Virus genome (UHGV): UHGV-0392283
Origin: a virus
Direction: 5' to 3' (one strand)
Length of the DNA: 37,163 nt
Numbering within the stretch: position 1 is the first letter of the stretch; every line of letters starts with the position of its first letter. A program made the position numbers and the translations under genes. Shown here one piece after another: positions 26,731 to 29,451 of this stretch. The notes beneath the pieces are model-generated. The model searched no databases. It saw only the letters and a program-made list of their open reading frames with translations, and was not told the origin of the DNA.

Positions 26731-29451
26731 TTAAGCACTCTTATTTCTATTTTTAGTCTTGTTTATATTCTCTTTCTTAGCACATCCTACACATCTAACC
26801 ATCCTATTATTTGTTTTTTTAATTCTTTTTCCACAATCCTTACATAATATATATCCATCATCTACAGAATTATTTTTAAAGTTGTTTTTTAAGTTCTCAA
26901 TAATTATATCTCCAAATACCTGGAATATAAAAGCCAATCTACTTTCGGCATTTTTAAAGCTCCATTTAATTATCATATCTATTACATCACTCTTATTAAG
27001 ATTATTTTCAATGCAATATTTCTTTACTTCATCCTTAGCATATTCATAACTTAAAATTTCTGCCTGTTCTTTATTATCATTTTTATTATAATCACTTATT
27101 CTTTTTAAAGTTTCTTCTTCTAATTTTTTATAAAATTCAATTACATTTTCAATAATATCTATTCTACTATTATTACAAAGCTTAGATACTCTAAAACTAC
27201 TAAATCCTTTACTATAATCAAATTTTGTATAAGGTATATTCTCTATGCTCTTACATATTCTATCCATTGTAGAGTTACTTAAATCCCTACAACTCTTATC
27301 TTTCTTATCTTTGGCAAATTGAAAGAAATAAGGATATTCTCTATTTTTCATAGCTTCTTTTAATGAGGTTGGTACTTTAGGAACTTGTAAAGTCTTTGCT
27401 GCATCTATAATAAAATTATTATATGCTGTTAACCATTTTATTAACTTTTCATAGTCTTCTGGATTTTCTCTATTCCATATATCTGTTAGAGTATTACTGA
27501 CCTTTCCTATATTTCCTTTATCATAAGCAAACTTTAATGAACTATATATATTATTTAAATTTATTTCTTTGGCTCCAGCTTTACCCATTTCATAATATAA
27601 AGGTCTTATATATTCCATTTGTTTTTCTGCTAAATCTAATAACCATTTTTCCTTATCACTTACAACTAGAGCCTCATCCCCATCATTATCAAACATTAAT
27701 ATTTTAGATATTAAATCATTGGCAGATGTATATATACCCTTAGTTATAAAGTATTCATTTTTCTTATTAGCTACATTCTTTCTTATAGCCCATTCTCTGC
27801 TTAGATGTGGACTTCTAAGAACTCCTAACCTACTATCTTTATTATATAAAGTACAATATACTTCTCCATCTTTTAAAGCTCCTTTAGGTTCTTTTTCTCC
27901 TAGGAATAACCATTCCATAAATGCAACTAAATCTGGTATTAAGAATGTTCTTTTTGCATTAAGTTTTATCTTTCCACTCTTTGCATCCTTCTTAACTTTA
28001 GTAATAAGATCTAATAAATATTTCTTTATATATGTACTACTTAATAACTCTGGATATAATCTTAGTATCTCTTGTAAGTTATCTCTATTATCATTATCTA
28101 ATGTAGCTCCTAGAAATTCTAATTGTGAATCTCTGTCATGGTGTACTTCATTTATAGTTTCCTTCAATTTATATGTTAGCTTCTCTATATCATCATCACT
28201 CATTTTATTTAGGGTTTGTAGCATTTGATAGTTAATATTCATATTCTTGAACTTGTCCAAATCTTCTTTACATATAGCTGCAATACATTTTAAATCTTTA
28301 AAATACTTCTTGTACTCTTCCCATGAATCATAATACTTCCACATCTTAAACTGGCTCTTAGTAAATATTATTTGTATATCATCTTTTATAACATCATATT
28401 CTTTACCATATATATCTGTAACCCTTGTACTATTATGTAACTTAGCAAACTTGTGAAAATTAGTAGGTGAAATTAAACCTTTTATCCAGGGTAATCTAAT
28501 TTGAATATTTTTCTTATTGCTTATCTTAGGCATACATATACCGCATCCATCCATAACTGGTATAGGAACATCCATTATCTTTCTTTCTATATTCCAATCT
28601 ACTTTATATTTTCTTCTTTGCTTACCATTCTTATCGGTAATATATCTATCAAATACCTTATCATCTCTTGTTAGATAGTCAACTTCACCTTTTACATTAA
28701 GCTCCATATCATCAACTACTATACATTTATCTATATTAAAATCTCCCCATACATCACTAGCACTATTATTTAAAGATAAATAAGCGAGAAATTTATTTAT
28801 GTTCATACCACCTTTTTTATTTATCTTATCTATAGTTAAACCACACATTAACTTTTGTTCGTTATCTTTCCATATAGATTCTTTAATCATTAAGAATTTT
28901 TTCTGTCTAGTTTGTCCAGCTCCAGCAGTAAAAAACTTATATTTTTCATTTTCTATAAATATTCCATTTTTTATCACTTGTTCCAATAAAGAATGATCTT
29001 CTTTATTTGCATCTATAGTAATAAAATCTAACGTTATATTATCAGCATCTAAATTTAAAGTTCTAGTTAATGTATTTTCAAATATCGCTATTATATCTTT
29101 ATCTTTTAAATCTTTTCTCTTTATTTCTCTAGCTTTATCTGTTCTAAAATTTAATATTTCTTGTTTTAATTTCTTATCTAATCTATTTATAAATCTTTCT
29201 GTTAAATTTAATCTCTTATTTGTTTTAGCTATTTTTTTAAATAATTCTTTACACTCAGTATTCCATTCATCTTCATTTAAATTCAAATCATTTTTTATTT
29301 TATCGCTTATTCCTTTTCTAATTAAATATCTTCTTCTTTCATAAAATTTTTTTAAATCTGTTAAACTCTTTTCATCCTTAGTCTTAGCTTCATATAATTT
29401 TACACTGTATAGTTTAATTTGTTTTTTCATCATAATTTCTCTCTCCTTCAT
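26731..29451 (-). CDS. Large protein with beta'-like and beta-like double-psi beta-barrel catalytic motifs. Candidate YonO-like single-subunit RNA polymerase with a C-terminal zinc ribbon.
   Basis: VLRSPHLSREWA...(33 aa)...MFDNDGDEALVVS parallels RNAP beta' NRAPTLHRLGIQA...NADFDGDQMAVH (R.P.L then D.DGD with similar spacing). N-terminal IDKINKKGGMNINKF resembles the beta GRHGNKGVISKI motif. C-terminal CKDCG...CVGC zinc ribbon. 906 aa. Confidence 0.4.
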   Translation of the reverse strand: MKEREIMMKKQIKLYSVKLYEAKTKDEKSLTDLKKFYERRRYLIRKGISDKIKNDLNLNEDEWNTECKELFKKIAKTNKRLNLTERFINRLDKKLKQEILNFRTDKAREIKRKDLKDKDIIAIFENTLTRTLNLDADNITLDFITIDANKEDHSLLEQVIKNGIFIENEKYKFFTAGAGQTRQKKFLMIKESIWKDNEQKLMCGLTIDKINKKGGMNINKFLAYLSLNNSASDVWGDFNIDKCIVVDDMELNVKGEVDYLTRDDKVFDRYITDKNGKQRRKYKVDWNIERKIMDVPIPVMDGCGICMPKISNKKNIQIRLPWIKGLISPTNFHKFAKLHNSTRVTDIYGKEYDVIKDDIQIIFTKSQFKMWKYYDSWEEYKKYFKDLKCIAAICKEDLDKFKNMNINYQMLQTLNKMSDDDIEKLTYKLKETINEVHHDRDSQLEFLGATLDNDNRDNLQEILRLYPELLSSTYIKKYLLDLITKVKKDAKSGKIKLNAKRTFLIPDLVAFMEWLFLGEKEPKGALKDGEVYCTLYNKDSRLGVLRSPHLSREWAIRKNVANKKNEYFITKGIYTSANDLISKILMFDNDGDEALVVSDKEKWLLDLAEKQMEYIRPLYYEMGKAGAKEINLNNIYSSLKFAYDKGNIGKVSNTLTDIWNRENPEDYEKLIKWLTAYNNFIIDAAKTLQVPKVPTSLKEAMKNREYPYFFQFAKDKKDKSCRDLSNSTMDRICKSIENIPYTKFDYSKGFSSFRVSKLCNNSRIDIIENVIEFYKKLEEETLKRISDYNKNDNKEQAEILSYEYAKDEVKKYCIENNLNKSDVIDMIIKWSFKNAESRLAFIFQVFGDIIIENLKNNFKNNSVDDGYILCKDCGKRIKKTNNRMVRCVGCAKKENINKTKNRNKSA

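Follow-up and report, generated by a model that had tools for sequence, protein, structure and literature searches.

The stretch of DNA analysed here (the window; virus genome UHGV-0392283, 37,163 nucleotides) is a complete, circularly permuted phage-plasmid of about 37 kb from Clostridium perfringens. A gene on its minus strand very probably encodes a single-polypeptide, two-barrel DNA-dependent RNA polymerase (RNAP) of the YonO family. By analogy, the most likely role of this enzyme is late-gene transcription, since YonO of the phage SPbeta provides a precedent and the order of the surrounding genes is conserved.

26731..29433, minus strand: gene of the probable YonO-family single-chain two-barrel RNAP; 900 amino acids from the probable start ATG at 29433

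An earlier note on this DNA had called the product a YonO-type single-chain RNAP, and direct homology bears this out. A tblastn search of phage genomes found yonO of SPBc2/SPbeta (E 8e-145; 38.9% identity, 90% query coverage), and BLASTP against SPbeta YonO gave 39% identity over 816 columns (E 2e-173), running from the N-terminal helical region through the C-terminal cysteine cluster. Further tblastn matches were a hypothetical protein of Clostridium phage D-1873 and, in Psychrobacillus phage Perkons, a protein named 'RNA-dependent RNA polymerase'; the complete phage genomes among the best 30 tblastn matches measure 90-137 kb. Alignment with YonO homologues, a check that the note had proposed, is collinear for YonO, the Perkons protein and the clostridial homologues, and the motif residues are invariant family-wide. 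A word-indexed search returned 3664 matches to the polymerase, and an exhaustive search of 1.84 billion representatives returned 952 related clusters at 50% identity (255 with E < 1e-30). Judged at the sequence level, the similarity to YonO and the invariance of the motifs are far beyond chance.

The protein is indeed easily missed by annotation, as the note had anticipated. RefSeq labels it "hypothetical protein", and searches of the polymerase protein alone against Pfam, PHROGs and PDB sequences returned no functional name (PHROG 8308, 'unknown function'; nothing in the PDB). The Pfam RdRP model PF05183, whose gathering threshold is 23.8 bits, gave no match at E<=1 for the window protein or for YonO. 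Because close homologues exceed this threshold (28.3 bits for P0019, which is 87% identical, and 53 bits for P0116), the miss reflects the sensitivity of the model and not another fold; the "hypothetical protein" label follows from the sub-threshold position of the window protein and YonO. Searched against PDB sequences, family profile A2 produced only a non-significant zinc-ribbon similarity to Rpb12, and profile A7, from a more diverse alignment, produced a marginal match to maize RDR2 (whole-sequence E 0.045; two aligned stretches of E 2.6 and 180). The RDR2 match is collinear, with 'Y.Y..SSAGQIR' opposite 'YEFLAFSASQLR', the region of K220 opposite 'SVSKCAARMGQLFSSS', 'DvDGD' opposite 'DLDGD', 'IGeiSn' opposite 'LGAIST' and 'IDyaKTl' opposite 'VDFAKTG'.

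Structure prediction points the same way. An AlphaFold2 model built on a 74-sequence alignment reached a mean predicted local distance difference test score of 90.4 and a predicted template modelling (TM) score of 0.83. Searched with Foldseek against the PDB, the model matched maize and Arabidopsis RDR2 (E 5e-20 to 2e-15) and QDE-1 (E 3e-14, of the order of 1e-14; TM about 0.5 for the full chain), with weak matches to beta' subunits (E about 1e-2); in BFVD, it matched 'RNA dependent RNA polymerases' of uncultured phages at E 1e-35. Every significant structural match is a two-barrel polymerase, and the predicted model places the protein's fold in the QDE-1/RDR/YonO branch of these enzymes. The note had named the lack of a double-psi beta-barrel (DPBB) fold as an outcome that would speak against its call; with RDR2 and QDE-1 as the best PDB matches, that outcome did not arise. 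A TOPRIM or primase domain around the DxDGD segment was rejected, as no TOPRIM or primase family matched and the significant structural matches were all two-barrel polymerases. Membership among the multisubunit beta'/Rpb1 proteins, which would entail a NADFDGD context, bridge helix, trigger loop and partner beta subunit, was likewise rejected, this set of features not being found.

The catalytic centre can be traced in the conserved residues, which are numbered throughout in the 906-residue mechanical open reading frame (ORF). That ORF is real, and all the strings quoted in the note were located in its translation; the gap between VLRSPHLSREWA and ILMFDNDGDEALVVSD, given there as 33 residues, is actually 28.

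27787-27822, minus strand: VLRSPHLSREWA, residues 544-555
27655-27702, minus strand: ILMFDNDGDEALVVSD, residues 584-599
27676..27690, minus strand: D588-N-D590-G-D592, putative catalytic, Mg2+-binding aspartate triad of the beta'-like barrel; invariant in alignments of 13, 74 and 54 sequences
27808..27816, minus strand: R546-S547-P548, R-x-P motif of the beta'-like barrel; R546 and P548 invariant among 54 homologues, at the end of a predicted strand (541-546)
28477..28551, minus strand: D301-G302...R319...K324-G325, acidic residue and basic pair of the beta-like barrel; all five residues invariant among 54 homologues

The diverse alignment behind these statements holds 54 representatives that are 27-41% identical to the query, and 24 of its columns are invariant. 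Besides the aligned initiator Met, these are K220, D301, G302, R319, K324, G325, S366, K369, Y408, Q409, D507, R546, P548, E553, D588, D590, G591, D592, N679, I682, D683, K686 and P707. The DxDGD at residues 588-592 is the only one in the protein. In the predicted secondary structure, the Asp loop precedes a strand, R546 terminates one, and R319 and K324-G325 flank a beta-turn, R319 and K324 bordering the turn between strands 316-320 and 323-329. From R546 to D588 there are 42 residues; in E. coli beta', the corresponding distance is about 35 residues.

Two-barrel RNAPs share eight universal residues, namely four Asp, two Arg/Lys, and one Arg plus one Pro (PMC2919709). These are D709, R738, K743, R962, P964, D1007, D1009 and D1011 in QDE-1; in RNAP II, they are D837, K979 and K987 of Rpb2 with R446, P448 and the Asp triad of Rpb1 (PMC2919709). 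We infer that D301, R319, K324, R546, P548, D588, D590 and D592 form this set in the window protein, because all eight are invariant, their spacing resembles that of QDE-1, and they fit the predicted secondary structure. The R-to-K spacing is five residues in both proteins, and the distance from the Lys to the R-x-P motif is 222 residues vs 219 in QDE-1. D301, R319 and K324 are thus the proposed counterparts of QDE-1 D709, R738 and K743 and of Rpb2 D837, K979 and K987, and R546 and P548 would correspond to Rpb1 R446 and P448 and to QDE-1 R962 and P964. In such an active site, D588, D590 and D592 together with D301 would hold two Mg2+ ions; R319, K324 and R546 would interact with the RNA 3ʹ end and the incoming nucleoside triphosphate, and P548 would be structural. 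In YonO, the equivalent Asp triad is essential, and the 3D>3N mutant is dead (PMC5467207).

Two further segments had been singled out in the note, one as a beta-subunit lysine motif and one as a C-terminal zinc ribbon.

28798..28827, minus strand: KINKKGGMNI, residues 209-218; a region typical of RDR-type enzymes
26782..26844, minus strand: CxxC-13-CxxC (C870, C873, C887, C890), residues 870-890; C-terminal probable zinc ribbon

The lysine motif did not hold up. K209, K212 and K213 vary among homologues, which have AQGG, NLGG, SMGG, EKGG and other versions in the family alignment, and the segment is predicted to form a helix (207-212), a loop and a second helix (218-229). Its conserved pattern is I210-N211...G215.N217..K220, in which K220 alone is invariant among the 54 homologues, and the segment falls within the better stretch (E 2.6) of the marginal RDR2 match, opposite 'SVSKCAARMGQLFSSS'. 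The beta-like pair is therefore more plausibly R319 and K324-G325: the equivalent of the 'K....KG' motif would be R319-L-P-W-I-K324-G325, predicted to lie in a beta-hairpin, and D301 would be the fourth acidic residue. The zinc ribbon fared better. Its four cysteines are invariant in the 13- and 74-sequence alignments and at least 90% conserved among the 54; the cluster aligns with the YonO C-terminus, and two short strands are predicted there. Pfam zinc-ribbon models match the C-terminus only below threshold, and the motif is a probable zinc ribbon on the basis of the conserved cysteines.

The mechanical ORF extends over 26731..29451 on the minus strand and begins at an ATG at 29451. This ATG lies within a Shine-Dalgarno-like GAAGGAGAG that precedes ATGATG at 29433, an arrangement (GAAGGAGAG-N5-ATGATG) that alignment shows to be kept in four related plasmids. 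Because the homologues and RefSeq models have 900 residues and the upstream ATG sits inside the ribosome-binding site, translation probably starts at Met7 (29433), giving a product of 900 amino acids.

29434..29590, minus strand: conserved leader and ribosome-binding site of the polymerase gene, from the four-plasmid alignment

Beyond this leader, the upstream sequence diverges among the four aligned plasmids, which places a module boundary about 150 nucleotides 5ʹ of the polymerase gene. The variable region there holds two exact copies of ACACCCTAAAGGTGGTTTT on the minus strand, 45 nucleotides apart (29585-29603 and 29630-29648); each is a small palindrome followed by a T-run, and no such copies are expected by chance. 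The polymerase protein itself is 85-100% conserved across many C. perfringens isolates and plasmids, which argues for selection.

The genetic setting agrees with the note, which had placed the gene on a phage-plasmid: replication and partition genes share one replicon with a full head module and a partial tail module. The last and first bases of the window are contiguous in plasmid pCP149-92_1. Segments 91-97% identical to the window recur in at least 12 C. perfringens plasmid records of 35-39 kb, and near-identical complete plasmids of 35-39 kb exist.

29748-30701, minus strand: replication-initiator-like HTH_36/DnaD-like gene, adjoining the polymerase gene upstream
7409..20468, minus strand: packaging and structural module by PHROG assignment (HNH, small and large terminase, portal, protease, major capsid, major tail, tape measure)
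3205-4113, plus strand: ParM-type partition gene
1751-2593, minus strand: RepA-like initiator gene
801-1199, minus strand: NikA-like gene

Along the minus strand, a gene for an HTH regulator and the initiator-like gene come first, and the polymerase gene is followed by genes for a GIY-YIG homing endonuclease, a serine recombinase, ToxN and a PBECR4 nuclease, then by HNH, the terminases and onward. It thus lies about 6 kb upstream of terS, terL and the portal gene and is co-oriented with them. The same order is found in two independent elements (one of 38.5 kb and one of 32.6 kb with an integrase) whose polymerases are 47% identical to that of the window: early genes, polymerase, about 5 kb of small ORFs, terminase, portal, protease and capsid. 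Downstream of a C. botulinum homologue come YonK- and YonJ-like genes, an arrangement also seen in SPbeta. In relatives, a DEAD/DEAH helicase gene stands upstream of the polymerase instead, and the leader of about 150 nucleotides and the first 330 nucleotides past the stop codon are nearly invariant; the polymerase therefore appears to travel as a module.

YonO supplies the functional precedent. It forms stable elongation complexes on RNA/DNA scaffolds and extends RNA processively on DNA with little pausing (PMC5467207). It is induced with the prophage and is required for 37 late genes, which form one operon with a start site downstream of yonO; deletion of yonO in SPbeta silences only the late genes (PMC5467207). 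A comparable course can be proposed for the window. During plasmid carriage, the polymerase gene would be silent or expressed at a low level; upon induction, a host-RNAP promoter would drive its expression in the early or middle phase, and the enzyme would then transcribe the downstream, co-oriented packaging, head and tail genes (7409..20468) processively. Read-through of the hairpin and T-run sites along the structural array would be an extrapolation from the little pausing reported for YonO in PMC5467207, where no terminator read-through was found.

Relative to known two-barrel enzymes, the window protein stands closest to SPbeta YonO, sharing DxDGD, R-x-P, D...R....KG, 'IG.SN', 'ID.AKT' and the C-terminal CxxC...CxxC. 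Both are phage-encoded, upstream of the packaging and structural genes and co-oriented with them. However, the hosts differ (Clostridium vs Bacillus), as do the replicons, an extrachromosomal phage-plasmid of about 37 kb vs an integrated prophage of 134 kb. The window protein also has a longer N-terminal helical region and carries about 21 inserted residues in the beta-hairpin at residues 263-285, and, unlike in SPbeta, its gene is followed by the GIY-YIG homing endonuclease and cargo. QDE-1 and RDR2 (PDB 2J7N, 7Y7P, 7W82, 7RQS) have the two-barrel core and the mapped eight-residue active site in common with it, at 11-16% identity and with marginal collinearity at several motifs, but they serve RNA silencing in eukaryotes, act on RNA templates and lack this C-terminal zinc ribbon and the phage context. 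Far more distant, with no detectable sequence similarity, are P23-45/P74 gp62, the tape-measure-fused gp96 and gp66 of crAss-like phi14:2 (PDB 8F5M, 8H2M, 6VR4); gp96 and gp66 are virion-packaged and injected, whereas nothing suggests so for the window protein, and the domain decorations differ. The catalytic DPBB cores recur in the multisubunit RNAP subunits beta and beta' (Rpb2 and Rpb1), along with the universal residues, namely the NADFDGD-type triad, R-x-P and the K...KG pair. In those enzymes, however, the active site is split over two large subunits in a core of about 400 kDa, and the trigger loop, clamp and flap have no counterpart in the window protein.

To our knowledge, YonO alone among the bacterial or phage members of the RdRP-like branch of two-barrel polymerases has been characterised biochemically. 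In 2010, Ruprich-Robert and Thuriaux listed the YonO-like proteins of firmicute phages and genomes (PMC2919709), with reference to Iyer et al.; the enzymology of YonO was described by Forrest et al. in 2017 (PMC5467207), and a 2021 study of SPbeta described YonO as known from SPbeta-type phages alone. The window polymerase is a further member of this known family and departs from it in nothing; the new details are the type and size of the replicon, a C. perfringens plasmid-prophage of about 37 kb, and the lack of annotation throughout this lineage. The searches made for a link between these C. perfringens plasmids and YonO returned none.

Several observations weigh against a DNA-dependent late-gene polymerase. 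The nearest solved structures are RNA-dependent enzymes, and databases name close homologues 'RNA dependent RNA polymerase'. Both facts would suit an enzyme that copies or amplifies phage or host RNA, for example into antisense or double-stranded RNA, as would the passing of the PF05183 threshold by close homologues; this possibility was raised before YonO was tested (PMC2919709). Such an activity is nevertheless quite improbable, as YonO, 39% identical over its full length, is a DNA-dependent RNAP that drives late-gene expression (PMC5467207), QDE-1 is itself found in the PDB with a DNA template (7y7r) besides RNA templates, and the conserved position ahead of the structural genes suits a transcriptase. 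The residue equivalences with QDE-1 and Rpb2, for their part, were drawn from conservation, spacing and predicted secondary structure rather than from superposition. The setting also deviates from that of SPbeta: the scan of neighbouring ORFs turned up no homologue of yonN (HU-like), yonK or yonJ, the polymerase and terminase genes are separated by about 6 kb of cargo (GIY-YIG, resolvase, ToxN, PBECR4), and several cargo genes carry strong sigma-A-like promoters and terminators of their own. No promoter-like motif that recurs in the window could be linked to the polymerase.

A main function in replication of the phage-plasmid, by primer synthesis or transcriptional activation of the origin, would fit the adjoining HTH_36/DnaD-like, initiator-like gene at 29748-30701 and an element that must replicate autonomously and has RepA and a ParM-type partition gene. 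Yet that neighbour is not conserved, being a DEAD/DEAH helicase gene in relatives, beyond the module boundary about 150 nucleotides upstream; the replication-initiator and partition genes (801-4113) lie at the opposite end of the window, and in SPbeta only late genes fell silent without yonO, all of which makes this function highly improbable. The window also lacks the Dit, tail-spike and BppU genes found in its relative pCP149-92_1 (2471-10090). At 3205-9655, its tape-measure gene directly adjoins plus-strand maintenance and cargo genes, likewise in NZ_CP075995 and pCP955-85, and no lysin or holin turned up among the ORFs scanned. Since distal-tail genes are missing, the element may not make infectious particles, and the shorter plasmids may be defective or helper-dependent. 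Together with the interruption of the tape-measure gene by an HNH ORF, this could mark the polymerase as an inactive or decaying remnant on a defective phage-like plasmid. The chance of this is close to negligible: the ORF is unbroken and aligns collinearly with YonO along its whole length, its catalytic and zinc-binding residues are all retained, and the proteins of many isolates and plasmids show 85-100% identity. A YonO-family DNA-dependent RNAP with a role in late transcription thus remains the preferred reading.

Non-coding sequences near the polymerase and the late genes were searched for promoters and regulatory RNAs. A long structured region directly follows the polymerase gene.

26127..26730, minus strand: structured 604-nucleotide non-coding region (RNA fold z-score -7.5 vs shuffled)
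26538-26511 and 26208-26188: two terminator-like hairpins within this region, from a terminator scan
26291-26446: 28-nucleotide inverted repeat around a 100-nucleotide segment, within this region

By its sequence, the region at 26127-26730 is a possible regulatory RNA or promoter region; an Rfam search of it returned no match. In pCPC216_3 and 19TSBNCP p2, the inner arms are swapped for another self-complementary sequence, CTACTCAAC...GTTGAGTAG vs GTCACTAGAG...CTCTAGTGAC in the window. An invertible promoter switch, composed of the 28-nucleotide repeat and the nearby serine recombinase, was rejected: all five relatives have the same orientation, and no evidence of inversion was seen. In the alternative downstream cassette of some relatives (pCPC216_3, L004, about 3780-3860; also L005 and L008), a tRNA-like T-arm, GTAGGTTCGAATCCTAT, was noticed; ARAGORN called no tRNA at this sequence, which could be an attachment-site remnant.

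A unit consisting of a hairpin and TTTTTATTATGCAAAAA recurs at six gene junctions, as five intergenic copies and one between the protease and capsid genes, and is much commoner than in shuffled sequence.

20829-20850, 25161-25182 and 34752-34773, all minus strand: hairpin followed by CTTTTTATTATGCAAAAAAATA
near 35640, 36376 and 15791, all minus strand: weaker copies of the same unit

As a promoter used by the polymerase, the unit was rejected, because relatives have no copy upstream of terS, SPbeta has none at all, and the unit resembles a terminator-junction cassette; from its sequence and placement, it could be such a cassette, a regulator site or a promoter. Sigma-A promoters near consensus occur in the cargo, for example TTGACA-17-TATAAT at 22249-22221. 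The best match near HNH and terS is 10/12 at 21239-21211, about 750 nucleotides upstream of HNH and before the ORF at 20880-21239. The contrast between near-consensus promoters at cargo genes and a weaker match by HNH and terS lends weak support to polymerase-driven late genes; in this AT-rich window, 123 promoter-like matches were found vs 123 expected by chance.

In SPbeta, the published P_YonO forward primer maps to 9129-9152 of the locus (L002), between yonN and yonK. Between these two genes lies a duplicated TCATTTATGA(A/G)GGT (L002 9099-9112 and 9256-9269), with the second copy inside the primer-bracketed interval and the first just upstream of the forward primer, which makes the sequence a candidate element of the YonO promoter. 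No counterpart was seen in the clostridial elements, and a genome scan for the P_YonO primer returned nothing. A 17-mer conserved past the polymerase gene in relatives, AGAGGGAGACCTCGTAA, was discarded, because 11 of its 13 viral-contig matches are coding sequence for an AT-hook (KRGRPRK) and unrelated to the polymerase; covariation support for structure in its region is weak, and no Rfam family matches.

Clostridial elements whose polymerases are about 50% identical to that of the window have a conserved element of about 150 nucleotides past the polymerase stop codon. Within it are AATGGCTT...AATTCT..A..TG and a GAGG-GAGA-CCTC hairpin, and the window bears only a partial resemblance to the element. 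Its reading frames differ, which excludes a conserved peptide; Rfam has no entry for the element, and covariation support is weak.

L006 12874-13060, L011 12760-12945, L012 12745-12930, L017 2619-2805 and L019 7687-7872: copies of the element of about 150 nucleotides

An Rfam Fusobacteriales-1 RNA (85.7 bits) was matched in pCPC216_3 (L004 6128-6251), ahead of the ORF that precedes the small terminase gene; nothing in the window exceeds the threshold for this RNA.

Other observations concern the mobile and maintenance genes of the window. The tape-measure gene (7409-11626, minus strand) is split into an N-terminal part (10541-11626) and a C-terminal part (7409-9655), which match consecutive segments of one PHROG profile and have an HNH endonuclease ORF (9865-10521) between them, an arrangement that points to an intron or to an insertion, either intein-like or of a free-standing homing endonuclease. 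The GIY-YIG ORF past the polymerase (25209-26126, minus strand) is also present in pCP955-85 and pCPCPM77b_3, and not at this site in pCP149-92_1, pCPC216_3 or 19TSBNCP p2; inserted ORFs, including one with a GIY-YIG annotation, also split yonO itself in several SPbeta-like phages. For the toxin gene of ToxN/AbiQ type (type III; 22307-22840, minus strand), no ToxI-type antitoxin repeats were detected in the 220 nucleotides upstream. Downstream of toxN and before the PBECR4 gene, Rfam gave a near-threshold match to the 'drum' RNA (21975-22083, minus strand; 42.2 bits vs a gathering threshold of 43, E 9e-5). Three tandem 23-nucleotide repeats, TGTGATTTTCACACTTCTAGAGA, lie at 2140-2208 within the RepA-like gene; they are iteron-like and may mark the plasmid origin.

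The presence of intact, conserved homologues on small phage-plasmids of a pathogen, under the label hypothetical, means that the YonO-type enzyme is more widespread than recognised, and such proteins deserve the name YonO-like DNA-dependent RNA polymerases in annotation. A 37-kb replicon with roughly 20 intergenic regions is also a much simpler system than a 134-kb prophage in which to look for the promoter of this polymerase class and for any accessory factors. A broader proposal, which we consider unlikely, is that there is a lineage of 32-39 kb clostridial phages and phage-plasmids with a YonO-type polymerase, whose nearby conserved non-coding elements, namely the structured region of about 600 nucleotides past the gene and the hairpin and TTTTTATTATGCAAAAA unit of the six junctions, may be its promoters or a regulatory RNA. 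If true, the first promoter consensus for a YonO-type two-barrel enzyme would come from a compact element, and the polymerase might act as a switch between plasmid maintenance and virion production.

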